This document shows, in pieces, positions 2,774 through 30,116 of a DNA stretch of 35,909 nucleotides (within the stretch, counting starts at the first letter, position 1; each line of letters begins with the position of its first letter). The notes beneath the pieces are model-generated. The model searched no databases, was not told where the DNA came from, and saw only the letters and a program-made list of their open reading frames with translations. This stretch comes from a virus. The stretch covers positions 1-35,909 of the IMG/VR virus record IMGVR_UViG_3300028630_000004. One strand, written 5' to 3'. A program made the position numbers and the translations under genes.

Positions 2774-5485
2774 ATGGTAAACCTGGGCGAACTCGTTTTC
2801 AGCATCGTCGCGGAGGACAGAGCGTCCGCGACGGTCGGCGCAACCGCGCAGAAGATCGCTGGGGCGGGCGTGGCAATCGGCGCCGGCATCGGTGTCGCCG
2901 GGGCAGCGGCAACGGCCCTGATCGACGCGAACCGGGGCATGGATGCGAGCTTCGCGACCACCGCCGCGTCGATGGGACTGCCGGCCGATGCCGTGAAGGA
3001 GCTGGCCCGCTCCCTCCAGTCCGTCGACAGCCCGATCGAAGAGGTTGCGGCGACCCTCGACATCCTCGCCCGCGGCGGGATGACGAACGTCGACAGCATG
3101 GGCGCGACCGCGTCGGCGTTCGACACCCTCGCGGACGCGACCGGGCAGAACGCCGACGCCCTGACGGATGCGATGGTGCCGGCGTTCAACGCTCTCGGGA
3201 TCGAGCTCGAGAAGGCGCCTGCATACGTCGACGGGCTCGCGGTCATGTTCCGTAAGTCGAACGTGGACCTCGGCGACTTCTCGACGATGATGACCCGCAT
3301 GGGCCCGGACCTCGGCGAGATGGGCATGGGGCTCACGGATGTCGAGGCGATCCTGATGAGCTTCGCCGACCGGGGCATCACGGGCCGCAAGGCAACGACC
3401 GAACTCACCGAGGCGATCAACGCGGCCGACGGGGACATCTCGAAGTTCTACGACTCGATCGGGCTGACCGAGGGCGAGCTGCAGGCCTACGGGGCGCAGG
3501 TCTCGAACGTTGCCGGCACGGCGCAGGAGTTCGCGGACGCGCAGAACTCGCAGTTCGGGACGATGGATAAGTTCGCGTTCGAGATCACCAAGCTCAAGCA
3601 GGGGCTCGGCGACGTCCTCAAGCCGTTCGAGGGCGTGGCGTCCGCGGCGATGGTGGTCGGCCCGGCGATCGCGATGGTCGTGCCCGCGGCCGTCTCGCTT
3701 GCAGGGGCCATCGGTGCCGGCGGCGGGCTCGCGGCCGTGGTCGGCGGGCTCAGTGCGACGGTAATGGGCGCCGCGGGTGCTCTCGCGGCGTTCCTCGCGC
3801 CGCTCATCGCGCCGATCGCGGTGATCGCCGCCGTGGTCGCGGGGCTCTACCTCCTGAACAAGCAGTTTAACTTTGTCGGCGGGATCGTCGAATGGCTCGG
3901 CGGGGTCTTCGAGGGCTTCGCGTCGTGGCTCGGCGACACGTTCGGCCCGATCATCGACGGCGTGATCGGCTTTGTCGGCGAGCTCTTCGGCGAGATGGAA
4001 GACGGCGAGGGGCCGATCGAGATGGTCCTCGGGCTCTTCAAAGACCTCGGGGATGTCGCGCTCAGGGTCGGCGGGTTCATCGGCAGCGTGCTCGGCCCGG
4101 CGATCCAGGCCGTCGCGACGTGGATCGGCGAGACGCTCGGCCCCGCCATCAAGGGCGTGGTCGGGTTCTTCGGCGACCTGTGGGAGGAGGTGAACAAAGC
4201 CGGCGGCGTCTTCGAGCGCGCGCGCGATGTCATCGTTGCCGCGTGGAACGTGATCGCCAGCCTCTTCGGGGGCGGTGATGGGAACGGCGTGGTCGTGGCC
4301 ATCAAGGGGCTGTGGGACGCCGTCCTCGCCTACGTGCCTGTGGCGTGGGGCTCCATCATCCAGGCCGTCGGCACGGCGCTCGTCGCCCTCGGGACGTGGA
4401 TCCTGACCAACGGCCCGCCGCTCGTCGTCGCGGCGATGCAGGCGATATGGACCGCGATCACGGTCACGATCCCTACGGCGTGGGCGGCGATACAGACGGC
4501 CGTCGCGACGGCCGCGGGGCTGATCTGGACCTGGTTATCGACCGAAGGCGTCCGGCTCGCAGGTGCGGCCGTGGCGTCGATCTGGACGTGGATCCAGGGC
4601 GCGGTTCCGGCCGCGTGGTCGGCAATACAGGCGGCGGTCGTCGCGGCGGCTCAGGCCATCTGGGCGTGGCTCACGGGCGAAGGGAAGGCCGGCGCGGACA
4701 CGGCGGTTAAGTCGATCTGGTCCACCATCGCGGGGGCCGTCCCGGACGCGTGGAAGGCGATCATGGCCGCCGTGCTCGCGGCAGCGCGGGCGATCTGGTC
4801 GTGGCTCTCCGGTGGTGGTGCGGGCGAGGCGAAGAGCGCCATCGGGGCCGCGTGGTCGGCGATCGCGGGGGCCGTCCCGGACGCATGGAAGGCAATACAG
4901 GCGGCGGTCGAGTCGGCGGCGCGCCGCGTCTGGAACGCGGCAAAGGAGATCCTCGGCAAGCCGATCGAGATGGTCGTCACGACCATCCAGCGCACGGTTG
5001 AAGAGGTCGTGCAGGGGGCGACCACCTTCCTCGGCGGTGGCGGCTCGAGCGGCACGACCTACTCCCCGAGCAACGTCGTTTCCGACGAGAAGCGGTACGA
5101 CAGCGACGGCGTCCAGGTCGGGGGGAACTCGTCGAGGAGCTATTACGGCGATTACATCTACAGCCCGGACGGCCACAAGATCGGCCGGTACATCGGCGGC
5201 AAGGCGACGTACTACCACTCGGGGGGCATCGCCGAGAATGAGCAGCTTGCAGTCCTCCTCAAGAACGAGCGCGTTCTGTCGCCGGCACAGACGAAGGAGT
5301 ACGACGCCGGGCTGTTGTCGGCCGTGCAGGCGCTCGCGGCGAAGATCGACCAGCTCGGCGGCTCCGGTGGCGGTGACGTGATCGTTCACGGCGACGTCAA
5401 GCTCTCCGAGGACTACTCATACGACCGCTTCCGCGAGGATGTCGGGCGCTGGAAGTCGAGCCGGATCGCGAAGGGGGTGCTCTGA
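2774..5485 (+). CDS. Tape measure protein
   Basis: 903 aa, Ala/Gly-rich with hydrophobic stretches and internal ~45-aa W-rich tandem repeats. Canonical position. Confidence 0.85.
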   Translation: MVNLGELVFSIVAEDRASATVGATAQKIAGAGVAIGAGIGVAGAAATALIDANRGMDASFATTAASMGLPADAVKELARSLQSVDSPIEEVAATLDILARGGMTNVDSMGATASAFDTLADATGQNADALTDAMVPAFNALGIELEKAPAYVDGLAVMFRKSNVDLGDFSTMMTRMGPDLGEMGMGLTDVEAILMSFADRGITGRKATTELTEAINAADGDISKFYDSIGLTEGELQAYGAQVSNVAGTAQEFADAQNSQFGTMDKFAFEITKLKQGLGDVLKPFEGVASAAMVVGPAIAMVVPAAVSLAGAIGAGGGLAAVVGGLSATVMGAAGALAAFLAPLIAPIAVIAAVVAGLYLLNKQFNFVGGIVEWLGGVFEGFASWLGDTFGPIIDGVIGFVGELFGEMEDGEGPIEMVLGLFKDLGDVALRVGGFIGSVLGPAIQAVATWIGETLGPAIKGVVGFFGDLWEEVNKAGGVFERARDVIVAAWNVIASLFGGGDGNGVVVAIKGLWDAVLAYVPVAWGSIIQAVGTALVALGTWILTNGPPLVVAAMQAIWTAITVTIPTAWAAIQTAVATAAGLIWTWLSTEGVRLAGAAVASIWTWIQGAVPAAWSAIQAAVVAAAQAIWAWLTGEGKAGADTAVKSIWSTIAGAVPDAWKAIMAAVLAAARAIWSWLSGGGAGEAKSAIGAAWSAIAGAVPDAWKAIQAAVESAARRVWNAAKEILGKPIEMVVTTIQRTVEEVVQGATTFLGGGGSSGTTYSPSNVVSDEKRYDSDGVQVGGNSSRSYYGDYIYSPDGHKIGRYIGGKATYYHSGGIAENEQLAVLLKNERVLSPAQTKEYDAGLLSAVQALAAKIDQLGGSGGGDVIVHGDVKLSEDYSYDRFREDVGRWKSSRIAKGVL
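4430..4960 (+). repeat. Four tandem ~135-nt (45-aa) repeats inside the tape measure gene
   Basis: The repeated peptide is (S/A)IW(T/S)xIxGAVPxAWxAIQAAVxxAAxxIWxWL. The exact 20-mer ggcaatacaggcggcggtcg occurs at 4621 and 4891 (270 nt = 2 x 135). Confidence 0.8.
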
Positions 5486-11552: not shown

Positions 11553-11911
11553 TCGCCCGCACGACCGCCGGCACCGTCCGGGTTGGCCGCGGTGCGCTCG
11601 CCGGCTGTCTCCTGCTCCAGACCCCCGAGCGGTCGGCCGCGATCCGGCTCGACGACTACCACGACCTGATCGCCGGCCTGATGCACAGACCGATCGACGT
11701 GGTGGCCGCCCTGTACGACCGGATCGGCCGCGCGACGGTCAGCGGCGACGCGCTCCATGTCGAGCTCGCCGGGTGCCACTACCACGCCTGGTGCTCCGAC
11801 CTCGCCGCGCTCCTCGAAGGCCGGCGGGACTCGGTCGCGCTCGGCTTGCTGACGCCTGAATATTCGACCTCCGCCCCGGCGACGGGTAACGCCGGCCCCC
11901 TCCACGCATGA
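11549..11911 (+). CDS. Hypothetical protein
   Basis: 120-aa ORF in the coupled chain. Confidence 0.4.
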   Translation: MIARTTAGTVRVGRGALAGCLLLQTPERSAAIRLDDYHDLIAGLMHRPIDVVAALYDRIGRATVSGDALHVELAGCHYHAWCSDLAALLEGRRDSVALGLLTPEYSTSAPATGNAGPLHA

Positions 11912-12852
11912 CCGGCCTGACGCACCTCTCCCTCTTCACGGGGATCGGGGGCATCGACCTCGCGGCCGAAGCGGCCGGCTTTGAAACTATTGCACAGGTG
12001 GAACGTGACAACTACTGCCGAAGAGTCCTGGCCAAACACTGGCCGGGAGTACCGCGATTCGACGACGTCCGGGACGTTACAGCAGACGCTCTTCGGGACG
12101 CCGGCATCGGACGCCCGACCCTCGTCTCCGGCGGCTTTCCCTGCCAGCCGTTCTCCTGCGCCGGGAAGCGACGAGGCGCTGCGGACGACCGTTTCCTCTG
12201 GCTTGAGATGTGCCGGATCGTGTCGGAGTGCCGGCCGGCTTGGGTGCTTGGAGAGAACGTTGCTGGGTTCGTCGGCATGGCGCTCGACGATTGCGCTGCT
12301 GACCTGGAGCGTCTCGGCTACGCCGTCCGGGCGTTCGTTGTTCCGGCTGCGGGCGTCGGTGCCCCCCACCAGCGCGCCCGGTGCTTCATTGTGGTCAACA
12401 CCGCAGGTCGTGATGCCGGACCACTCGGAGACGAGGCACCTGGACGAGACGGGGCGAACGGTCAACGCGAAGGGCGACGACTACGGGATGAACCTCGTGG
12501 AAGCCGTACGGATGTGGCCGACGCCGACCGGGACCGGGAACAACAACCGCAAGGGCCTCTCGGAGCGATCGGGCGACGGCCTCGCGACGGCGGTGCATCT
12601 CTGGCCGACGCCGACGAGCCGCGACCACAAGGACACGGGCGACTGTGCGAACGTCCCGGTAAACTGCCTTCTTGGGCGGGCAGTCGGGCCGACGAAGACG
12701 AATGGCTCGCTCGCGCCGGAGTTTGTCGAGTATCTCATGGGGTTCCCAATCGGGTACACCGACTGCGAGCCCTCGGGAACGCCGTCGTCCCGGCGCAAGT
12801 CTACCCGTTCGTCCAGGCCATCGCCGACATCGAGCGAGGGGTGATCGCGTGA
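11908..12852 (+). CDS. DNA (cytosine-5) methyltransferase; the annotated frame stays open, but the target-recognition domain (about 12395-12763) is only recognisable in the +1 frame
   Basis: The annotated frame has motif I LFTGIGG, motif IV GGFPCQPFS, ENV, HQRARCFIV and a C-terminal LGNAVVP. The +1 frame has WSTP.., MWPTPTG.., LWPTPTSRDHKD.., LAPEFVEYLMGFPIGYT. Confidence 0.8.
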   Translation: MTGLTHLSLFTGIGGIDLAAEAAGFETIAQVERDNYCRRVLAKHWPGVPRFDDVRDVTADALRDAGIGRPTLVSGGFPCQPFSCAGKRRGAADDRFLWLEMCRIVSECRPAWVLGENVAGFVGMALDDCAADLERLGYAVRAFVVPAAGVGAPHQRARCFIVVNTAGRDAGPLGDEAPGRDGANGQREGRRLRDEPRGSRTDVADADRDREQQPQGPLGAIGRRPRDGGASLADADEPRPQGHGRLCERPGKLPSWAGSRADEDEWLARAGVCRVSHGVPNRVHRLRALGNAVVPAQVYPFVQAIADIERGVIA

Positions 12853-14866: not shown

Positions 14867-14982
14867 GCGACGAATGGCGATCGGCGCTCGCGCAGGTGAT
14901 GGCGTGTGACCGGGAGTTCTGTGTTGTCTGCGCGTGCCCACTCGACGCGACCGGATGGATTGACACATTGGGGGAAGAATGA
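14863..14982 (+). CDS. Small Cys-containing protein (39 aa)
   Basis: ATGA overlaps at both ends. Confidence 0.3.
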   Translation: MSDEWRSALAQVMACDREFCVVCACPLDATGWIDTLGEE

Positions 14983-15302
14983 GCGACACCCTCTCGACCG
15001 GCTGGGCCGACGTGGAAGCGTCGATCCTGGCCGACTCAACGGCGGGCTACACGATCCCGGAGATCGCGGCCCGGTGCGGCTGGGGCCGGCAGGCGGTCGC
15101 CGGCGTCCTCGCGCGCCACGGCCGGCACTCGAAAGTCCCGTCGACGTATGTGCCGTGGACGGACGAGGAGCGGGCCGTCATTCTCGCGGCGACCTCCTAC
15201 ACGGACGCCCACCGCGCCTACCATGCCGCGTTCCCCCACTCGAAGCGAGGGCAGCACGCGGCGGGGGCGATGTATTACTATCTGCGGAGGCGGAAGGCAT
15301 GA
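14979..15302 (+). CDS. HTH / Myb-SANT-like DNA-binding protein; source of the leader duplicated at 12849
   Basis: TIPEIAARCGWGRQAVAGVLARHG (HTH), then WTDEERAVILAA (SANT-like). Confidence 0.5.
   Translation: MSDTLSTGWADVEASILADSTAGYTIPEIAARCGWGRQAVAGVLARHGRHSKVPSTYVPWTDEERAVILAATSYTDAHRAYHAAFPHSKRGQHAAGAMYYYLRRRKA
14980..15066 (+). repeat. Partner of the 12850-12936 direct repeat
   Basis: See 12850-12936. Confidence 0.9.
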
Positions 15303-15700
15303 CGGCCCTCTCTCCACTCGTGCTGAACCCGGACGGGTCGTCACGGGTGCTCCCGCTGATGGCCGTGCTCGAACACCTCAATGGGGGCGAGAGCCTGACC
15401 GGCGAGACGCGACAGGACCGGATCAACGCGCAGCGGCGGAAGCGGTACGCAACCGACGCGGAATACCGGGAGGCGCGGAAAACCACCGACCGCGAGAGGT
15501 ACGCGAACGACCCCGAATACCGCGAACGGCGACGGGCGCGAGACCGCGAGAGGTACGCGAACGACCCCGAATACCGCGAACGGCTACGCGCCCGCCACCG
15601 GTGGCGGTACGCGAACGATCCCGAATACCGCGAACGGCGGCGGGCGAGCCGGGTGGCGGCGTACTACAAGGCGAAGGCGGAAGGGCGTGAGCCGCTATGA
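15299..15700 (+). CDS. Arg/Glu-rich protein with tandem RERYANDPEYRERRRA repeats
   Basis: ATGA overlap. Three 18-aa repeats plus one degenerate copy. Confidence 0.5.
   Translation: MTALSPLVLNPDGSSRVLPLMAVLEHLNGGESLTGETRQDRINAQRRKRYATDAEYREARKTTDRERYANDPEYRERRRARDRERYANDPEYRERLRARHRWRYANDPEYRERRRASRVAAYYKAKAEGREPL
15437..15652 (+). repeat. 54-nt tandem repeat: one degenerate copy (15437) plus three clear copies starting at 15491, 15545 and 15599
   Basis: cgcgagaggtacgcgaacgaccccgaataccgcgaacgg recurs with a 54-nt period. Confidence 0.85.
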
Positions 15701-16861: not shown

Positions 16862-18106
16862 GTGATTGAAGCCGCGCTCGCAGTCTCACCAGTCGGAACG
16901 TATAGCACCCTGCCCATATCATCCATTCGGGTTAAGGACGGCAGGCGCCCGATCAACGGATCGAAGGTCCGCGAGATCGCAGACTCGATCCCGCTCGTCG
17001 GCCTGATCAACCCGATCACGGTCTCGACCGACAACGTCTTGATCGCCGGGCTCCACCGGATCGAGGCGTTTAAGTCGCTCGGGCTACGGGAGATCCCGGC
17101 GCTCGTCTTTTCCTACGACGAGATACAGGCGAAGCTCGCCGAAGTCCTCGAGAACTCCGCCCGCGCCGACCTCTCTGAACTCGCGAAAGGGCAGGCGCTC
17201 CTCGAGGCGAAGACGCTCTACGAGGCCATGCACCCCGAGACGAAGCACGTTTCGGAACGAGGGGGGCCAGGGAGGGGCAATAAAACAGACGAATCTGATT
17301 CGCCTGTTTTGGCGTTCACATCAACCGTGGCAAACGACGCCGGGACCACGGCGCGCGCGATCCAAACGTCGATCCAGATCGCGAAGGCGATCGCACCCGA
17401 CGTCCAGGAGGCGATCGCCGGCACCGACCTCGCCGACTCGAAAAAAGACCTGCTCAACCTCGCCCGTATCAAGGACCCGGAGAAACAGCGCGAGGTCGCC
17501 CGGAAGGTAATCGAGGGGGAGGCGAAGGACGTCCACACGGCCTACATCAATGTGAACCGCGCCGAGAAGCTCGAGGCGCTCGCCGAACCGGCGCCCATGA
17601 GCACCGCGGCGGGCTCCTATAATGTGATCCTCGCCGATCCCCCGTGGCGGTATGAGTTTTCAGAGACGTCCGGTCGCAAGGTCGAGAACCACTACCCGAC
17701 GATGGAACTGGACGAGATCGCGGCGCTCGAGGTCCCGGCCGACGAGACCGCGATCCTCTTCCTATGGACAACCGCCCCGAAGCTCGAGGAGGGGCTAGAC
17801 ATCCTACGGGCGTGGGGCTTCACGTACAAGACCTGCGCGATCTGGGACAAACTGAAGAAAGGGCTCGGCTACTACTTCCGCGTTCGTCACGAGATCCTGC
17901 TCGTCGGGACGCGGGGCGACTTCCCGACGCCGGCCGCCGAGACCCGGTTCGATTCGGTCTTCGCCGTGCCGAAGGGCGAACACTCAGCGAAGCCGGCAAT
18001 CGTCCACGAAATGATCGAGGCCATGTACCCGAAGGCCCGGCGCCTCGAGGTCTTCGCACGGGCGGCCCGGCCCGGGTGGGCGGTGTGGGGCAATGAAGCG
18101 CCATAA
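16862..18106 (+). CDS. ParB N-terminal domain fused to an MT-A70-family N6-adenine DNA methyltransferase
   Basis: ParB-like LVGLINPITVSTDNVLIAGLHRIEAFKSLGLREIPALV. MT-A70 motifs ILADPPWRYE, HYPTM, LFLWTT, AWGFTY, HSAKP, LEVFARAARPGWAVWGNEA. Confidence 0.85.
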   Translation: MIEAALAVSPVGTYSTLPISSIRVKDGRRPINGSKVREIADSIPLVGLINPITVSTDNVLIAGLHRIEAFKSLGLREIPALVFSYDEIQAKLAEVLENSARADLSELAKGQALLEAKTLYEAMHPETKHVSERGGPGRGNKTDESDSPVLAFTSTVANDAGTTARAIQTSIQIAKAIAPDVQEAIAGTDLADSKKDLLNLARIKDPEKQREVARKVIEGEAKDVHTAYINVNRAEKLEALAEPAPMSTAAGSYNVILADPPWRYEFSETSGRKVENHYPTMELDEIAALEVPADETAILFLWTTAPKLEEGLDILRAWGFTYKTCAIWDKLKKGLGYYFRVRHEILLVGTRGDFPTPAAETRFDSVFAVPKGEHSAKPAIVHEMIEAMYPKARRLEVFARAARPGWAVWGNEAP

Positions 18107-18713
18107 TTTTGACGTGAGCCTCGAGTATTCGCACCGGGCATCGGTAGAAGGCATATTCGATGCCGCGTACCGCGAGTGGTTCCCCGACCTGCAACGGATC
18201 GAACTCGTCGAAGACATGGCCCGGCAGCGGAGAGGGATCGATAAGGTGCTCCACTTCGCAGCGGGCAACTCGTGGACGGTCGATGAGAAGATGCGGAAGG
18301 AAGATTACGGGGACATTCTGATCGAGACAATCTCCGTTTTCCAGAATAACCAGAAGGTGAAAAAAGGATGGATCTACACCTGCCAGTGCGACTTTATCGT
18401 CTACGGGATCGAGCCAACGCGGAAAGCGTACCTCCTCCCTGTGCCCCTCCTGAAGAAGGCGTGGTTGAAGAACCATCATGTGTGGGAGCAGACCCATCGA
18501 TCGGTCACTGCCAGGAACGAGAGGAACGGATCCCGGTGGGAGACGATCTCGACGGCGGTCCCGATCCGCGATCTCCTCGACGCGATCCGCCTCGAAATGA
18601 TCAGAAACTTCCACGAAAAACCAGAATCGGGCGGGCAGATGTCGCTTTTCGACTTCAAAAAGCCGGCACTTTACCAGGCCCACGAGTATTCTTTCGAGGA
18701 GATCGCCGCATGA
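18093..18713 (+). CDS. Hypothetical protein with a possible PD-(D/E)XK nuclease motif; GC visibly lower than its neighbours
   Basis: 206-aa ORF with ..GIDKV..(13 aa)..VDEKMRKEDYGDILIE. The codon third positions are much less G/C-rich than in flanking genes. Confidence 0.5.
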   Translation: MKRHNFDVSLEYSHRASVEGIFDAAYREWFPDLQRIELVEDMARQRRGIDKVLHFAAGNSWTVDEKMRKEDYGDILIETISVFQNNQKVKKGWIYTCQCDFIVYGIEPTRKAYLLPVPLLKKAWLKNHHVWEQTHRSVTARNERNGSRWETISTAVPIRDLLDAIRLEMIRNFHEKPESGGQMSLFDFKKPALYQAHEYSFEEIAA

Positions 18714-18979
18714 GCCCCGAAACACAGTGCCATTTTGGTACAGGAGGTGACGGGATAGAGACTTATTACTCCGTCGACAGGCGGGGGCGCGGAAACGCGT
18801 TTGACGTGGTTAGGCAGTCATGGTTAGGCGCGGCCGGGCGAGGCGGGGCGAGGCACGGCGAGGCGAGGCAGTCAGGGTTAGGTCGGGCTTGGCAGGGCTG
18901 GGTTGGGCACGGCGCGGCAGTCGAGGCACGGCGAGGCGAGGCGAGGTATGGCAGGGCACGGCTCGGCAGTCGAGGTTAG
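18710..18979 (+). CDS. Doubtful ORF; the first ~30 codons may be real, the rest runs into the repeat array
   Basis: ATGA overlap start, but from about 18810 the translation is just the period-5 repeat read in one frame. Confidence 0.15.
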   Translation: MSPETQCHFGTGGDGIETYYSVDRRGRGNAFDVVRQSWLGAAGRGGARHGEARQSGLGRAWQGWVGHGAAVEARRGEARYGRARLGSRG

Positions 18980-19284
18980 GCGTGGCATGGTGCGGCCCGG
19001 CAAGGCGAGGCAGTCATGGTTCGGCGAGGCGAGGCGAGGTATGGCATGGCACGGCGAGGCAGTCGAGGTGTGGTGAGGCGGGGCGAGGCCCGTTATGTTG
19101 AGGCAGTCGGGGTGAGGTCTGGCGTGGCACGGCGAGGCGCGGCACGGCAAGGCGCGGCAGTCGGGGCGAGTTCCGGCTAGGCGTGTCGGGGCAGTCTTGG
19201 CGGGGTCCGGCAAGGCGTGGCATGGCAAGGCGAGGCAGTCATGGCAAGGTGTGGCGAGGCCCGGCGAGGCACGGCGCGGCAGAC
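18813..19284 (+). repeat. G-rich, pentanucleotide-phased repeat array: 10 units headed by GGCAGTC plus a terminal GGCAGAC
   Basis: GGCAGTC at 18813, 18867, 18916, 18965, 19009, 19058, 19102, 19156, 19190 and 19234; GGCAGAC at 19278. Spacings are 54, 49, 49, 44, 49, 44, 54, 34, 44, 44, all of the form 5n-1. Unit interiors are runs of G(C/T)NNG pentamers. Confidence 0.9.
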
Positions 19285-19316
19285 ATGGGAACACACAATC
19301 TAAGGAGTGATTAAAA

Positions 19317-19937
19317 ATGGCAGTAGCTAGGAAGGCGGGGGGTCCGGTCGAACTGACTCCCCTGAAGATCAGCACGGTCAAGATACCGATTATCGGTGTG
19401 ACGCCGCTGATCACGCACAACTGGTCAGAGAAGGCCAGGAAACAGATTAAGGGCAAGCAGGGCGGCAAGGCCGTCGCGAAGAAGGCGCCGAAGGTTCCTG
19501 AAGAGGACTATGAGGGCGCCTTCTATCGGTTCGATGACGGTCGGCCCGGGTTCCCGGCGTCCGGCTTCAAGGCCGCGATTGTCGGCGGCGCCAGGATGTT
19601 CGACGGCATCCCCATGACGAAACTCAAAGTGGCCGTGCGCGTCGAAGCAGAGGACGAAAGCGGGCTCGTCGAGATCAAGGGGTCGGCGCCGAAGATGCGC
19701 GAGGATATGGTCCGTCTCGAGACAGGCGTGGCCGACATCCGATACCGCCCCGAGTTCACCGAATGGCACGCGACTCTGACGATCACGTTCAACGAGTCCA
19801 TGCTATCCCAGGAGCAGCTCGTGAACCTCGTCAACGCGGCCGGCTTCGGCGGAGTCGGCGAATGGCGCCCGAGTGCGCCGAAGTCGGCGAGCGGTTCGTA
19901 CGGATGCTTCCGCGTCAAGACGGAGGCGGACGAATGA
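19317..19937 (+). CDS. Conserved-looking protein of unknown function; first gene after the array
   Basis: AGGAG SD 10 nt upstream. 206 aa with a Lys-rich linker and a Gly-rich C-terminal loop (AAGFGGVGEWRPSAPKSASGSYGCFRV). Family not recognised. Confidence 0.55.
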   Translation: MAVARKAGGPVELTPLKISTVKIPIIGVTPLITHNWSEKARKQIKGKQGGKAVAKKAPKVPEEDYEGAFYRFDDGRPGFPASGFKAAIVGGARMFDGIPMTKLKVAVRVEAEDESGLVEIKGSAPKMREDMVRLETGVADIRYRPEFTEWHATLTITFNESMLSQEQLVNLVNAAGFGGVGEWRPSAPKSASGSYGCFRVKTEADE

Positions 19938-20464
19938 CCGACTATGCCTGGAAGACCCCACGGGTCTTCGGTCACGTCGACCCAAACGCGGCGGGAGGGT
20001 TCGTCGAGTCGCTGATTGAGAAACACGGATCGGTTCGTCCGATGACACTGGTCAACGAGAGCCGGCCAGCCGATGCCGTGCTCCATCCAGTTTTCGAGTG
20101 GGACGACACGGTCGCCGCCGAGCGGTTCCGCGAGGAGCAGGGGCGCGGAGTGTTGAAAAACCTCGTCGTGATCTCGCCGGCAACCGAGGCGCGCCCCGAC
20201 CCCGTCGAGCTGCGGGCCTTCGTCCCGGTCACGATCAAGAAGGACGAGGACCGCGGCTACGTGACGATCGAGGAGGTCTTGCACACTCCAGACTACCTGG
20301 AGGAGATGCTCGACCGGGCCCGGCGCGATCTGCTCTCATTTGAGCGGAAGTACGAGATGCTGAAGGACGAGGACGAACTCGCATCGGTCTTCACGGCGAT
20401 CGAATCCCTGAAGAAATCTGCCGACGGTGCGACCGCCTCCCGGGCCGGAGCCGTCAAAGCATGA
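19934..20464 (+). CDS. Hypothetical phage protein (HPVFEWDDTVAAERFREEQGR motif)
   Basis: ATGA overlap; 176 aa. The motif seems familiar from phage genomes, but I cannot name the family. Confidence 0.5.
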   Translation: MTDYAWKTPRVFGHVDPNAAGGFVESLIEKHGSVRPMTLVNESRPADAVLHPVFEWDDTVAAERFREEQGRGVLKNLVVISPATEARPDPVELRAFVPVTIKKDEDRGYVTIEEVLHTPDYLEEMLDRARRDLLSFERKYEMLKDEDELASVFTAIESLKKSADGATASRAGAVKA

Positions 20465-20806
20465 GTACCCAGTACTCAACTTTTTCCCCCCCTCTCAAAA
20501 GCATAAACATATTTCAGTCAAATATGTTTTTCAAAACCCGGTCAACGGCTGTAACCGTTTCAACTTTTCTCAAAGAAATAAACATATTTCACTTCGGTTT
20601 TTCTGCCGCCCCCGAGAGCGCGGTGTCGTACCAAGAGGGAGGTTATAAAGAGACCCTATCCTCAGAGAGAGGGATGTTGTATAGGTTGAACTTGAAAACT
20701 ATATATAACTTCTTACGAGTGTCGGGGCATGGTGGGCGGAGCGGGTCGCCCCGGACGGATCGAAAACTGAAGTCAAATATGTTTATGCCTTTGACCGGAG
20801 GCCGGC
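20465..20806 (+). promoter_or_regulatory. 342-nt AT-rich non-coding control region with repeated operator-like half-sites, a TATA box and a leader hairpin
   Basis: Perfect 10-5-10 palindrome aaacatattt-cagtc-aaatatgttt at 20505-20529. Extra half-sites at 20580-20589 (+) and 20775-20784 (-). actatatataac at 20698-20709. Hairpin gtcggggc..gccccggac at 20721-20756. GGAGG at 20796. Confidence 0.6.
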
Positions 20807-26973: not shown

Positions 26974-28368
26974 ATGGTCCGCGCGCAGAGCGATCCGGCG
27001 TGGTGGGTCTCGAGCGTGCTCGGCAACACCCTCTTGCCGAAGCAGGTCGAGATCATCGAGTCCGTCCGCGACCACCGCGAGACGGCCGTCAAGTCCTGCC
27101 ACGCGGCCGGTAAGTCGTTCACCGCCGCGAACGTCGCGCTCTGGTGGCTGTTCAACCATCGGCACTCGATTGTCATCACCACCGCCCCGACCGACCGGCA
27201 GGTGCGCGGCATTTTGTGGAAGGAGATCCGCACCGGCCACCAGCGCGCCCGGGTGCCGCTCGGTGGAACCCTGCTGAGTCAGGAGCTCAAGCTCGATAAC
27301 GACTGGTGGGCGTGGGGCTTCACGGCGCCCGGGTACGACCCCGACCGCTTCCAGGGCTTCCACGCCATCCACACGCTCGTCATCGTGGACGAGGCGAGCG
27401 GGGTGACGGAGGACATTTACGACGCCATCGACGGCGTGCTGACGGCCGACGAGTCCCGGCTCCTGATGATCGGCAACCCGACCAACCCGAGCGGCCGGTT
27501 CGCAAAGGCGTTCAAGACGCCCGGGATCGCGAAAGTCTCGATCAGCGCCTTCGATACGCCGAACTTCACGACGTTCGGCATCACCGAAGCGGACATCGCC
27601 GCCGGCGCGTGGGAGCAGAAGATCACGGGCCCGCTCCCGAACCCCTACCTCGTCACCCCGCGGTGGGTCGCCGACCGCTACAAGCGGTGGGGCCCGGACT
27701 CGGCGATGTACGGCGCGAAGGTCGATGCCCGCTTCCCCGCGGCCGGGAACGACACCCTGATCCCGCTCCACTGGATCGAGGCCGCGGTCGCCCGAACGCT
27801 CGTGCCATCGGCCCCGTCCGAGCTCGGCGTCGATGTCGCCCGGTTCGGCTCCGACGAGACGGTGATCATGCACCGCGCCGGCCCCGTCGCCCGGACGCTC
27901 AAGGTGATCCCGATGAGCGACACGATGGAGACGACCGGCCACGTCGTGCAGGCTATCGCGGCCGTCAAAGCACTCGCCGCAAAGGTCGATGCGGTCGGCG
28001 TCGGCGCGGGCGTGTACGACCGGCTCAAGGAGCTCAAGCAGCCGGCCCGCGAGATGCAGAGCGGACAGGCCGCGAAGGATCCCGAGCGGTACGCGAACGC
28101 CCGCGCCGAGTGGTGGTGGGGGCTCCGCGAGCGATTCGAGGTCGGCGACATCGACATCGAGAACGACGAGACGCTGATCGAGCAGCTCGCCGACCTGCGA
28201 TACAAGGTGAACTCGCGGGGCCAGATCCTCATCGAATCGAAAGAGGACATGAAGAAGCGCGGCGTCGGCAGCCCCGACCGGGCTGACGCGCTGATGCTCG
28301 TTTTCGGCACGCCGAGCGGACCGGCTCCCGGCCGGTTCGGCGTCGTCTCAGGAGTTCGATCATGGTAG
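26974..28368 (+). CDS. terL: Terminase large subunit
   Basis: Walker A-like SCHAAGKSF, Walker B LVIVDEASG, and a C-terminal nuclease-like half. The ORF is open from 26932; ATG 26974 avoids overlapping terS. Confidence 0.9.
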   Translation: MVRAQSDPAWWVSSVLGNTLLPKQVEIIESVRDHRETAVKSCHAAGKSFTAANVALWWLFNHRHSIVITTAPTDRQVRGILWKEIRTGHQRARVPLGGTLLSQELKLDNDWWAWGFTAPGYDPDRFQGFHAIHTLVIVDEASGVTEDIYDAIDGVLTADESRLLMIGNPTNPSGRFAKAFKTPGIAKVSISAFDTPNFTTFGITEADIAAGAWEQKITGPLPNPYLVTPRWVADRYKRWGPDSAMYGAKVDARFPAAGNDTLIPLHWIEAAVARTLVPSAPSELGVDVARFGSDETVIMHRAGPVARTLKVIPMSDTMETTGHVVQAIAAVKALAAKVDAVGVGAGVYDRLKELKQPAREMQSGQAAKDPERYANARAEWWWGLRERFEVGDIDIENDETLIEQLADLRYKVNSRGQILIESKEDMKKRGVGSPDRADALMLVFGTPSGPAPGRFGVVSGVRSW

Positions 28369-30116
28369 CACGAATCATACAGGGCGATTGCCTCGACGTG
28401 ATGCGCGAAATGGACGCCGGCAGCGTCGACGCCGTCGTGACCGATCCGCCGTATGGCCTGAACTTCATGGCCCGCGACTGGGATCACGGCGTGCCGGGCG
28501 AACGCTACTGGATCGAGGCGTTGCGGGTTGCGAAGCCCGGAGCGCATCTGCTCGCCTTCGGCGGGACGCGGACCTTTCACCGGCTGACCTGCGCGATCGA
28601 AGATGCCGGATGGGAGATCCGCGACTGCCTCGGCTGGATCTACGCTTCTGGATTCCCGAAGTCGCTCGACGTCTCGAAGGCGATCGATAAGATGGCGGGG
28701 GCCGAGCGCACCGAACAGATCGGCGTTTATATCGAGCCCGACGGGTGCCGGAGATCGTCGTTTGCCAACGCGACCGGCAACTGCTACGGGCGCGATGGAC
28801 GCCCACGCGAAAAGCCGATCACCGCCCCGGCAACCGGCGCCGCGAAGAAGTGGTCGGGGTGGGGCACGGCCCTGAAGCCGGCAGTCGAGTACGTCATCAT
28901 GGCGCAGAAGCCGATTGGAGGTGAAAGGGAACAGTATATAACAGTTGGGAACCTATATAAAGTAGAGGTTCGGCTGTGGTTACTGTTGTGTGCGAACGGT
29001 GCGGGCGAGAGTTCGACGTTAAGCCCGGACGAGTACGGCGAGGCGTTCGCTTCTGCTCAATGGACTGCCGCCGACGTGTCCAGTACACTGGCCGATTTGT
29101 CCGATCTGACGGATACGTCGCGCTTAAGGTCGGCGATAAGTTCGACCTTGAACACCGTGTCGTCATGGCGGAGCACTTGGGAAGAAGCCTTGAGCCGTGG
29201 GAGCAGGTTCATCACCGAAACGGCGACCGGGCCGATAATCGACTCGAAAACCTTGAACTCCTCAGCGTCGGCGCTCACACCGCAAGACATCATCCGGGCC
29301 GCGATTCTTCGACCTGGCTCATGGTGGAGTGCCATACCTGCGGCAAACATTTTGAACGCCGCCGCCACGAGGATGCGCGGCACCCTCGACATTTCTGCTC
29401 TAGAGAGTGCTATCGAAAAGGGGCACATCTCACGCCCGGGCGGTCTCGACCCGACCGTCTCGTTTAGGCCGATCATCCTCGCCCGCGCACCGCTCACCGG
29501 CACCGTCGCCGCGACCGTCTGTGAGCACGGGACCGGAGCCCTGAACATCGACGGATGCCGGATCGGGACAGATGACGACCGCGCGCGCCCTCCCGGCAGA
29601 ACCTCGGCGAACACATGGGATCTTTCAGGGCGCACCGAACCCTCTACCTCACATCCCGCAGGCCGATGGCCGGCGAACCTGATCCACGACGGCAGCGACG
29701 AGGTGCTCGAGCTGTTCCCGATGCAGTCGGGCGGCGGGCAACCGAAGCGGCGAGGCGGCGACACCGAGCGCAACGCCTTCGGTGACTTTGCCGGTGGGGA
29801 TGCTACGCCCGGCGTCGGCCGCTCGTCCGGTTCGGCGTCCCGGTTCTTTTACTGCGCTAAAGCTTCGAGAGCGGAGCGCGGCGAGGGCAACGTCCACCCG
29901 ACGGTGAAGCCCCTCGCGCTCATGCGCTACCTCTGCCGGTTGATCACACCACCCGGCGGGCTCGTCCTCGACCCGTTCGCCGGCTCGGGTTCGACCCTGA
30001 TCGCCGCCGTTGCCGAGGGCTTCGAGGCGGTCGGGATTGAGAGAGAAGCGGCATACGCTGAGATCGCCCGGCAACGGTTCGGGCCGCTCGACCAATTCGC
30101 TGAGGCTACATCATGA
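28362..30116 (+). CDS. N4/N6 DNA methyltransferase (DPPY, beta-class order) interrupted by a ~546-nt insertion that its reading frame nevertheless passes through
   Basis: [11 protein letters not shown] (motif IV); [19 protein letters not shown]; then [34 protein letters not shown]; [13 protein letters not shown]; [11 protein letters not shown] (motif I). The middle 182 codons look non-protein-like. Confidence 0.85.
28923..29468 (+). mobile_element. Lower-GC insertion cassette carrying an HNH homing-endonuclease gene with its own TATA-like and SD signals
   Basis: GC drops sharply at about 28915. Signals are cagtatataacag, cctatataaag and gaggt 8 nt before GTG 28976. Flanked by duplicated MTase motif copies at 28884-28922 and 29463-29504. 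Confidence 0.75.
28976..29467 (+). CDS. HNH homing endonuclease with flanking Zn-ribbon motifs
   Basis: [62 protein letters not shown] is a classic HNH. CERCG...FCSMDC and CHTCG...FCSRECY lie on either side. It reads in a different frame from the host MTase. Confidence 0.85.

Follow-up and report, generated by a model that had tools for sequence, protein, structure and literature searches.

A tandem GGYNN array upstream of a Cas7-like gene is very probably the guide-RNA array of a phage-encoded VIPR system

A G-rich tandem array in the viral record IMGVR_UViG_3300028630_000004 of IMG/VR (the 35,909 nucleotides analysed are hereafter called the window) is very probably the vrRNA (guide-RNA) array of a phage-encoded VIPR system, the effector gene of which, vipr, starts at position 19317. 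VIPR (Viral Interference Programmable Repeat) is a CRISPR-related system of RNA-guided DNA silencing described in 2026 (bioRxiv 10.64898/2026.04.26.720920, 10.64898/2026.04.26.720927), and has been characterised in Escherichia phage SUSP1 and in a Pseudomonas fulva prophage (type II) (bioRxiv 10.64898/2026.04.26.720920, 10.64898/2026.04.26.720927). It represents a newly described mode of RNA-guided DNA recognition that has been proposed to be ancestral to CRISPR. The vrRNAs are built of GGY/NN pentamers, and staggered arrays, in which neighbouring guides overlap by 1 nt, are also presented (Fig. S18 of bioRxiv 10.64898/2026.04.26.720920), sRNA-seq confirmation of the staggered arrays being absent from that preprint (bioRxiv 10.64898/2026.04.26.720920). 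The statement in the preliminary description of the window that no described element has this geometry is therefore superseded: the array is of an already described kind and is explained as such, and the locus adds another example of VIPR. It also illustrates that the defining geometry of a VIPR array can be recognised from raw sequence alone.

Geometry and composition of the array

The array is filled by 95 GGYNN pentamers on the + strand (18813-19284), in which G occupies the first position in 100% and the second in 85% of cases, the third is a pyrimidine in 100%, and the NN positions are near-random; the information content of pentamer positions 1 to 5 is 2.0, 1.4, 1.3, 0.31 and 0.04 bits, respectively. 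The autocorrelation of base identity over 18813-19284 is 0.55 at lag 5 versus 0.25-0.30 at other lags, and the longer-range signals of the array fall at lags 44, 49 and 54. Pairs of GG spaced at lag 5 number 70 in the array, compared with 27.5 +/- 5.1 (maximum 47) in mononucleotide shuffles, and do not exceed 13 (+ strand) or 16 (- strand) in any other 472-nt span of the window. The head motif GGCAGTC starts at 18813, 18867, 18916, 18965, 19009, 19058, 19102, 19156, 19190 and 19234, and a closing GGCAG is found at 19278. The head-to-head unit lengths are 54, 49, 49, 44, 49, 44, 54, 34, 44 and 44, all of the form 5n-1, and the base counts (G 234, C 108, A 70, T 60) make the + strand strongly G-skewed. 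The period-5 GG array, the ten GGCAGTC-headed units with their lengths and the G skew, as first described, were thus all recovered, the units exactly; the one-base reset of phase noted at each head motif is real as well, and matches the 1-nt overlap of a staggered vrRNA array.

When the array is parsed in the staggered fashion, with a 1-nt shared G between neighbours, the ten units consist of exactly 11, 10, 10, 9, 10, 9, 11, 7, 9 and 9 pentamers (Table 1). The vrRNAs of the characterised systems, in which no self-targets occur, are 9-16 repeats long (bioRxiv VIPR preprints), and nine of the ten units lie inside this range, unit 8 being short with its 7 pentamers. Degenerate GTT/GTC pentamers occur in units 6 and 8, and the sequence between units contains nothing beyond GGCAG|TC. 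The NN series of unit 1, for instance, reads AT TA GC CG GA GG GA AC GA GA AG. Units 3-4 and 5-6 represent a diverged 93-nt tandem duplication, in which the mismatches at pentamer positions 1 to 5 are 0, 2, 5, 5 and 8 of 19. The only repeat periods in the array are 5 and 44-54 nt, and spacer blocks are absent, in agreement with the earlier view that this is not a repeat-spacer CRISPR array. A CRISPR array was rejected on the additional grounds that a scan of the window against Rfam at gathering thresholds found nothing, and that the sole Cas-like gene is the Cas7-like vipr.

The array is flanked by a leader and a trailer, both of which are conserved in relatives (Table 1). The 3' end of the leader, GACGTGGTTAGGCAG, is shared with L156 and L158, two related loci that are considered below, and the trailer fills the 34-nt gap between the end of the array and the start of vipr. 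A scan of the + strand in and upstream of the leader found no sigma-70-like promoter.

Table 1. Predicted parts of the VIPR locus in the window
Feature	Coordinates	Strand	Remarks
Conserved array leader	18740..18812	+	100% identical in window and L004; sequence further upstream unrelated
Putative staggered vrRNA array	18813..19282	+	10 guide units, 95 GGYNN pentamers; GGY/NN and 1-nt-overlap layout
vrRNA unit 1	18817..18871	+	11 pentamers; staggered parse
vrRNA unit 2	18871..18920	+	10 pentamers; staggered parse
vrRNA unit 3	18920..18969	+	10 pentamers; staggered parse
vrRNA unit 4	18969..19013	+	9 pentamers; staggered parse
vrRNA unit 5	19013..19062	+	10 pentamers; staggered parse
vrRNA unit 6	19062..19106	+	9 pentamers, two degenerate GTT; staggered parse
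vrRNA unit 7	19106..19160	+	11 pentamers; staggered parse
vrRNA unit 8	19160..19194	+	7 pentamers, shortest, partly degenerate; staggered parse
vrRNA unit 9	19194..19238	+	9 pentamers; staggered parse
vrRNA unit 10	19238..19282	+	9 pentamers; staggered parse
Trailer / vipr 5'-UTR	19283..19316	+	Shine-Dalgarno AAGGAG 19302-19307; kept in L004, L156 and L158
vipr gene	19317..19937	+	206 aa; Cas7-like RAMP; phrog_4652
Putative vap-like accessory gene	19934..20464	+	176 aa; phrog_15946; start overlaps vipr stop (ATGA)
Intrinsic-terminator-like hairpin and T-run	20462..20488	+	operon 3' end

The product of gene 19317 and a proposed mechanism

By sequence comparison and structure prediction, the product of gene 19317 is a Vipr protein with a Cas7-like fold and the residues that read GGY. 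A search of PDB sequences with the profile of its family (hmmsearch) returned the 'SUSP1 Vipr protein' (36pp_D, E=4.1e-9) as the sole match, and the alignment of this family with SUSP1-type Vipr by hhalign had a probability of 96.8%; the sequence similarity of the product to SUSP1 Vipr is confined to the C-terminal ~60 residues, at ~36% identity. Its AlphaFold (AF2) model (pLDDT 88, pTM 0.83) gave 47 Foldseek matches in the PDB at E<=1e-3, the best being Csm3/Cas7 of type III-A and type VII complexes (E=2.5e-6; TM ~0.45-0.49). In SUSP1 Vipr, H17, R138 and D177-W178-R179 read G1, G2 and Y3 (VIPR preprints; structure PDB 36pp). These residues align with H34, R144 and E182-W183-R184 of the 19317 product, the pairing of H34 with H17 being one MAFFT-aligned motif that lies outside the C-terminal similarity. 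Among 42 homologues, H34, R144 and E182/W183/R184 are invariant or at least 90% conserved, and the G-loop G176..G179-V-G181-E-W-R-P is invariant. The product has no match in Pfam, NCBIfam or PADLOC, and in PHROGs it matches phrog_4652 only, a family of 'unknown function'.

The gene downstream, vap-like, is translationally coupled to vipr. It is homologous to the vipr-adjacent gene of Saal, Donkeykong, UmaThurman, ODay and Cy-LDV1, and has been kept beside vipr in actinophage and cyanophage loci. Its product shares 12% identity with SUSP1 vap1, no similarity being detectable; it has no Pfam match, and its structure model has no significant match in the PDB. A likeness to winged-helix Rep proteins was set aside, the weak matches concerned (E~1) not being evidence.

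Experiments on SUSP1 and P. fulva suggest how the locus would work. A + strand transcript would begin at the leader, cover the array together with vipr and vap, and end at the putative terminator near 20480, and the array would be cut or partitioned at every GGCA|G junction to yield ten vrRNAs of 35-55 nt. On the model of the preprints, one Vipr protomer would bind each GGY, so that a helical filament forms with the NN dinucleotides exposed; His34 and the G-loop acid would contact G1, Arg144 together with Trp183 would contact G2, and Y3 would be held in the pocket of the next protomer. These dinucleotides would then base-pair with a double-stranded DNA target in NNx register, passing over one base of the target (in most cases the codon wobble), and the R-loop triplex expected from this pairing would keep a rival phage, prophage or satellite from being transcribed. 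The one-base slip at GGCA|G may itself serve as the guide delimiter, that is, as a filament terminator that needs no tail, ribozyme or dedicated nuclease: as we infer, the register of 5 nt is lost at the 4-nt GGCA step, so that a filament could not cross it, and the guides would thereby be delimited in the tail-less staggered layout. The GGCA 4-mer step recurs throughout the 19317-type Vipr clade. With ten guides in 470 nt and no tails or ribozymes, the locus provides a test case for guide boundaries in the staggered architecture.

Pairing of arrays with vipr, guide turnover and alternative readings

A search of related loci, which the preliminary description had proposed, did reveal similar arrays, and their linkage is to vipr and not to the gene of the ParB-domain methylase, which in the window lies 0.7 kb upstream of the array. 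A same-strand GGYNN array was found next to the vipr homologue, at a distance within ~1.5 kb, in 47 of the 52 homologous loci, whose carriers are mycobacteriophages, Gordonia phages, a cyanophage and prophages of at least 8 phyla. All of the first 10 loci (three Cluster F mycobacteriophages, two Gordonia phages, one cyanophage and four IMG/VR contigs) have an adjacent same-strand array, as do 37 of the 42 prophage or MAG loci, where opposite-strand signals are only 3 and weak. The array lies upstream or downstream of the vipr homologue depending on the locus, on the vipr sense strand either way. Among mycobacteriophages, array and protein occur in the same 27 records. As a positive control, the array detector recovered the vrRNA blocks of the SUSP1-type locus L011. 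The closest homologue of the 19317 product among genome contigs is 54% identical, and close relatives are found in metagenomes only. The same clade is present in 27 Cluster F mycobacteriophage and several Gordonia phage records. The carriers are SEA-PHAGES isolates that can be cultured on M. smegmatis or G. terrae and are amenable to genetics; they offer a way to look for natural targets in the actinophage genomes already sequenced, of which there are thousands, and to follow guide turnover.

Close relatives of the window differ by the turnover of whole guide units. L004, whose Vipr is 97% identical, has a leader and a trailer identical to those of the window but 6 units; the NN agreement between any of these and a unit of the window is at most 61%, and the two arrays have no guide in common. 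L156 and L158 encode the same Vipr, 94% identical to that of the window; five to six trailer-proximal units are common to both, the leader-proximal units differ, and diverged paralogous units are present in each. The 15 distinct units parsed from these two loci and the 10 of the window are, without exception, exact multiples of 5. It is tempting to go further and suppose that 19317-type VIPR arrays renew their guides actively and in a polarised manner rather than by slow drift, a proposal that we consider rather unlikely as it stands. If the gain of units were leader-directed, through templated duplication followed by NN diversification, or through capture, VIPR would possess an adaptation-like stage, which is absent from the preprints' description (10.64898/2026.04.26.720920, 10.64898/2026.04.26.720927).

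Three other readings of the tract were weighed against a guide array. The least improbable of them, though still very improbable, is that the tract acts by structure or titration, through two-tetrad G-quadruplexes, through an R-loop formed during transcription that regulates vipr, or as a decoy RNA sequestering either the Vipr of a competitor or an RNA-binding protein of the host. GG every 5 nt could in principle give two-tetrad G-quadruplexes, the array belongs to the 5' part of the transcript that carries vipr, and targets were found for none of the guides. In the 35.9-kb window, the best NN match of any guide does not exceed the shuffled-guide maximum; the guides of L004, L156 and L158 match the window at the level of shuffled controls, and those of the window gave nothing above controls in 565 kb of retrieved loci. 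Exact 1-nt-skip scans of IMG/VR returned 0 matches for window guides 1, 7, 2 and 9 and L156 guide 4, the collection scans having demanded perfect matches where the preprint accepts an NN match of at least 80% (bioRxiv VIPR preprints). A consensus Saal/Donkeykong guide has 7 matches, which we read as chance since all are in unrelated low-GC contigs (23-48% GC); likewise, the 70 matches of the 18-nt core of guide 7 in metagenomes were judged to be chance, as they fall in unrelated genes, frames and contexts. Against a structural or titrating role, neither G-quadruplex nor R-loop propensity requires the strict pyrimidine at position 3 or the 5n unit lengths, the RNA fold of the array exceeds shuffled sequences in stability by a small margin only (z = -2.2), and the adjacent protein carries the counterparts of the GGY-reading residues of the solved Vipr filament. 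Furthermore, hypervariable NN positions together with whole-unit turnover are the behaviour of guides, not of a decoy or structural tract. The SD-like RNA sponge considered earlier does not fit the evidence either.

A duplex DNA element, in the form of origin iterons or of a sopC-like centromere for the ParB-domain methylase, is still less probable. The tandem repeat does adjoin a gene with a ParB_N domain, the cumulative GC skew peaks near 19-21 kb, and an AT-richer region follows the array at 20.5-20.8 kb. However, the local skew peak stems from the array's own G excess. In the loci of L004, the mycobacteriophages, the Gordonia phages and the cyanophage, the ParB-methylase is not beside the array, and the array travels with vipr; nor would the constraint to the vipr sense strand in 47/52 loci be expected of duplex-binding sites. 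Only GGY is conserved, the other positions being replaced wholesale between relatives whose Vipr proteins are 94-97% identical, which is incompatible with fixed protein-binding iterons.

Scarcely tenable, finally, is a protein-coding low-complexity repeat, which would specify an Arg/Gly/Glu-rich pseudo-pentapeptide protein. Some relatives do bear CDS annotations on their homologous arrays, namely Donkeykong (gp48), ByChance (gp39) and UmaThurman (gp40), the array of L156 is spanned by a predicted gene of 404 aa, and stop codons are rare in G-rich pentamers. However, stops are present in all six frames of the window array (+ 4, 1, 2; - 3, 2, 4), the longest + strand ORF across it is 93 aa, unit differences in 5-nt multiples plus the 1-nt slip scramble any frame, variation tracks pentamer positions 4-5 and not codon position 3, the invariable pyrimidine has no coding rationale, and the arrays of Saal, ODay and Cy-LDV1 lie in unannotated gaps. 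The stops strengthen the non-coding call made at the outset, although three + and two - frames had then been taken as open. As several actinophage arrays are annotated as hypothetical proteins, these annotations can be corrected.

Comparison of the locus with known systems

TIGR-Tas systems resemble the locus as compact, often phage-borne tandem guide arrays with a small effector and no PAM. Their repeats, however, are ~36 nt long with two contiguous spacer halves, and Tas has a Nop/box C/D-like fold, not that of a RAMP; nothing like these repeats or this fold is seen in the window. The repeat of Tweety gp54 / Che8 gp57 in Cluster F is 12 bp long, in frame, and encodes Ala-Ala-X-X tetrapeptides (PMC2884959). 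Like the array, it is a tandem repeat rich in GC, with a copy number that varies, and it lies in the early-right arm of Cluster F mycobacteriophages, a cluster in which VIPR arrays also occur; it was rejected as the identity of the array, being a 12-bp coding repeat at another gene (PMC2884959). Ideas of a TRAP-like or CsrA-like element, a Chi cluster or a Rho-utilisation site, which the period-5 GG pattern had suggested, were dropped after the protein partner had been identified.

With the backbone of class 1 CRISPR-Cas the locus shares the predicted Csm3/Cas7 fold and, on the VIPR model, would share one protomer per fixed RNA step and thumb-induced base flipping. Unlike class 1 CRISPR-Cas, it is virus-borne and lacks a repeat-spacer array, cas1/cas2, and Cas5, Cas6 and a large subunit. 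The RNA step also differs, being 5 nt with 3 bases sequestered and a discontiguous guide in VIPR, and 6 nt with 1 base flipped in class 1 CRISPR-Cas.

The locus also differs from the characterised VIPR systems. The ~40-nt structured 3' tail or pseudoknot and the per-guide spacer region of SUSP1-type VIPR (tails are present in L011) are missing, and the lack of 3' tails between units excludes the type II (SUSP1 clade) architecture, not VIPR as a whole. Ten guides of 7-11 pentamers (versus 9-16) stand head to tail, delimited only by GGCA|GTC; the array is upstream of vipr, and the putative accessory protein is unrelated to vap1. On the other hand, the locus is like VIPR in its ~20-kDa predicted single-RRM RAMP protein with a G-loop GxGxG(D/E)WRP and a thumb Arg, in its tandem GGYNN pentamers with hypervariable NN, which are intergenic and on the strand of the gene, and in being phage-encoded, with a small putative accessory gene in the operon and no self-targets. 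The tail-less layout with 1-nt overlap, as read here from the geometry, is that of the staggered VIPR array of Fig. S18.

Geometry of the pentamer array and its reading as guide units

The strict five-nucleotide period proposed in the preliminary description of the array (18813-19284) is borne out by the autocorrelation of base identity, which is 0.55 at lag 5 versus about 0.25-0.30 off-phase and whose longer-range peak shifts to lags 44, 49 and 54, as well as by a shuffle test, in which 70 GG..GG pairs at lag 5 were counted in the array versus 27.5 +/- 5.1 in the shuffles; any other span of the window holds at most 13-16. Ten copies of the head motif GGCAGTC were counted at the spacings listed previously (54, 49, 49, 44, 49, 44, 54, 34, 44 and 44), and the + strand is strongly G-skewed (G 234, C 108). 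The observation is real and was correctly described save for one detail: stops occur in 6/6 frames of the array, several of which had been said to stay open, and the longest ORF has 93 aa. The functions proposed at that time, i.e. an origin of iterons, a centromere for the ParB-domain protein, an R-loop or G-quadruplex tract and an RNA sponge, found no support, and the ParB-methylase is not adjacent to the array in the related contig L004 or in the mycobacteriophage loci.

Instead, the array is very probably the vrRNA (guide RNA) array of a Viral Interference Programmable Repeat (VIPR) system of staggered, tail-less architecture, with gene 19317 as its vipr. VIPR has been described in two 2026 bioRxiv preprints (10.64898/2026.04.26.720920 and 10.64898/2026.04.26.720927), according to which Vipr, a ~20-kDa ancestral RAMP, polymerises on vrRNAs of 9-16 YNNGG repeats, sequestering each GGY and leaving the hypervariable NN dinucleotides exposed. 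Base pairing of the latter with dsDNA follows an NNx register (the '1-nt skip rule') and gives an R-loop triplex, by which the transcription of rival phages, prophages and satellites is repressed. The Fig. S18 legend of 10.64898/2026.04.26.720920 names 'staggered arrays with overlapping vrRNAs', with 1 nt common to neighbours, as one of several architectures.

When one G is shared at each GGCA|G junction, the array resolves into ten units of 55, 50, 50, 45, 50, 45, 55, 35, 45 and 45 nt (11, 10, 10, 9, 10, 9, 11, 7, 9 and 9 pentamers), each of which opens with GTCNN and closes with GGCAG. The unit lengths of 5n-1 noted earlier are real, and arise because neighbouring units overlap by this G. 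All 95 pentamers have G at position 1 and a pyrimidine at position 3 (100% each); 85% have G at position 2 (T being mostly confined to the unit-opening pentamer), and positions 4 and 5 carry 0.31 and 0.04 bits of information. The 5n rule also holds for 15/15 distinct units parsed from two contigs with close Vipr relatives, L156 and L158. The GGCA step recurs throughout the Vipr clade of the window; the bases after it are GGY in the majority of loci, and GTC or GCC in the sub-clade to which the window belongs. We infer that this one-base register slip is what delimits the guides. Units 3-4 and 5-6 form a diverged 93-nt duplication, with mismatches at pentamer positions 1 to 5 of 0, 2, 5, 5 and 8 out of 19 and no codon-like bias. 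The RNA of the array shows no notable folding (z = -2.2).

The Vipr protein and its association with arrays

The product of gene 19317 had no match in Pfam, NCBIfam or PADLOC; its family comprises 1,675 matches at E <= 1e-3. A 34-member family profile matched a single solved structure, PDB 36pp chain D ('SUSP1 Vipr protein', E=4.1e-9), and hhalign against the SUSP1-type protein of phage Andreotti gave a probability of 96.8%. The AlphaFold2 model (pLDDT 88, pTM 0.83) resembles Csm3/Cas7 backbone subunits of type III-A and type VII CRISPR complexes (47 matches at E <= 1e-3). Residues H17, R138, D177, W178 and R179, by which SUSP1 Vipr reads G1, G2 and Y3 (10.64898/2026.04.26.720927), correspond to H34, R144, E182, W183 and R184, which are invariant or nearly so in the family.

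In a low-stringency blastn search of 50,697 phage records with window 16.8-21.7 kb, the array was the sole matching part, found in 27 Cluster F (Cheoctovirus) mycobacteriophage records, where a GGCNN array broken by GGCA lies directly upstream of a 19317 homologue (47-51% identical). A tblastn search with the protein returned the same 27 records, five Gordonia phage records and one cyanophage. Using a detector of GG at i and i+5, which recovered the tail-bearing vrRNA blocks of a SUSP1-type locus as a positive control, we found a same-strand array adjoining the gene in all of the first ten loci (three mycobacteriophage, two Gordonia phage, one cyanophage and four IMG/VR), upstream or downstream of it depending on the locus. 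Among 185,579 species genomes scanned, 42 loci with homologues were found, in Actinomycetota, Alphaproteobacteria, Bacillota, Planctomycetota, Verrucomicrobiota, Gemmatimonadota, Saccharibacteria and Spirochaetota; a same-strand array lies within about 1.5 kb of the gene in 37 of them, and weak opposite-strand signals occur in only 3. Gene 19317 and the array are thus a conserved module held to one strand, which points to the array acting as RNA.

Cyanophage Cy-LDV1 (Cylindrospermopsis) carries two arrays, 3388-3665 and 4181-4437, on either side of its vap-like gene, so the module extends past high-GC hosts. The largest array among the loci examined, 1.1 kb with about 24 four-nt junctions, lies on the same strand upstream of vipr in a Micromonosporaceae MAG (L036, 1812-2942). 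Several arrays have been called as coding sequences (see table), and the homologous ones in the Saal, ODay and Cy-LDV1 records are without annotation.

Features of the VIPR operon in the window, and arrays called as CDS in related loci
Feature	Position	Strand	Remark
Leader	18740-18812	+	100% identical in L004
Shine-Dalgarno AAGGAG	19302-19307	+	read from sequence
vipr ATG	19317	+	34 nt past array end
vipr	19317-19937	+	profile match to SUSP1 Vipr
vap-like gene, 176 aa, phrog_15946	19934-20464	+	start overlaps vipr stop (ATGA)
Terminator-like hairpin	20462-20478		3' of vap-like gene
Donkeykong gp48	L001 2983-3369		array annotated as CDS 'hypothetical protein'
ByChance gp39	L003 2987-3145		array annotated as CDS 'hypothetical protein'
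UmaThurman gp40	L008 3649-3972		array annotated as CDS 'hypothetical protein'
404-aa gene call	L156 1535-2749		call spans array

The operon and its surroundings

The 176-aa gene is called vap-like by position only: its product is homologous (motif HPLHxxFEWDD) to the vipr neighbour in Saal, Donkeykong, UmaThurman, ODay and Cy-LDV1, shows no relationship to SUSP1 vap1, and gave no significant fold match in structure comparison. A + strand scan found no sigma-70-like promoter in or upstream of the leader. The 'nuclease-like' gene just 5' of the leader (18093-18713), with a weak PADLOC DpdH match (E=0.011) and none in Pfam, PHROG or NCBIfam, is missing from L004 and therefore falls outside the VIPR module, whose boundary lies at about 18740.

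Just 3' of the operon, the AT-richer intergenic region 20465-20806 contains four copies of the 10-mer AAACATATTT / AAATATGTTT (20505, 20520, 20580 and 20775), of which the first two form a perfect inverted repeat around CAGTC; only one more copy (<=1 mismatch) occurs elsewhere in the window. Two sigma-70-like promoter matches on the minus strand also fall here, and the stretch has the appearance of an operator/promoter control region. ORF 14906-15700 contains a 54-nt tandem repeat (15488-15646; 2.9 copies, 86% matches) coding for a repeated RERYANDPEYRERRRA-like peptide. Three DNA methyltransferase genes (11908-12852, 16862-18106 and 28362-30116), one fused to a ParB_N domain, suggest heavy anti-restriction investment in this ~36-kb tailed-phage genome.

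Guide turnover, targets and comparison with described systems

The Vipr of L004 is 97% identical to that of the window, and the 73-nt leader and the SD-bearing trailer are common to both; the sequence 5' of the leader is unrelated, and each of the six L004 units has <=61% of NN positions in common with any window unit. L156 (about 2190-2750) and L158 (about 730-1310) encode one and the same Vipr (P0001), 94% identical to that of the window, and have five to six trailer-proximal units in common but different leader-proximal units; diverged paralogous units are present in both arrays, and L158 has diverged copies of two common units. This pattern suggests gain, loss and duplication of whole units, possibly polarised toward the leader. 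In seven metagenomic contigs, identical Vipr proteins go with identical arrays.

The window guides matched the rest of the window no better than shuffled guides, which fits the preprint's finding that VIPR systems lack self-targeting (10.64898/2026.04.26.720920). Neither the relatives' guides against the window nor the window guides against the 565 kb of loci that were fetched gave matches above the shuffled-guide level. Five guides of the window's sub-clade, scanned against IMG/VR for exact NNx matches, returned 0, and a mycobacteriophage consensus guide matched only unrelated low-GC contigs; the target search of the preprint (10.64898/2026.04.26.720920) is, in contrast, mismatch-tolerant. 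A single metagenome scan gave 70 matches whose genes and frames are unrelated, as would be expected by chance for 18 specified bases.

[quoted passage not shown] The class of element was already described in 2026. What is new here is the putative staggered processing of the vrRNAs; the apparent turnover of whole guide units, possibly leader-polarised; and the occurrence of VIPR in Cluster F mycobacteriophages and Gordonia phages, which are tractable and several of whose records give it as CDS. The SUSP1-type locus has vrRNA blocks with tails, whereas the architecture of the window array is tail-less and markedly different.
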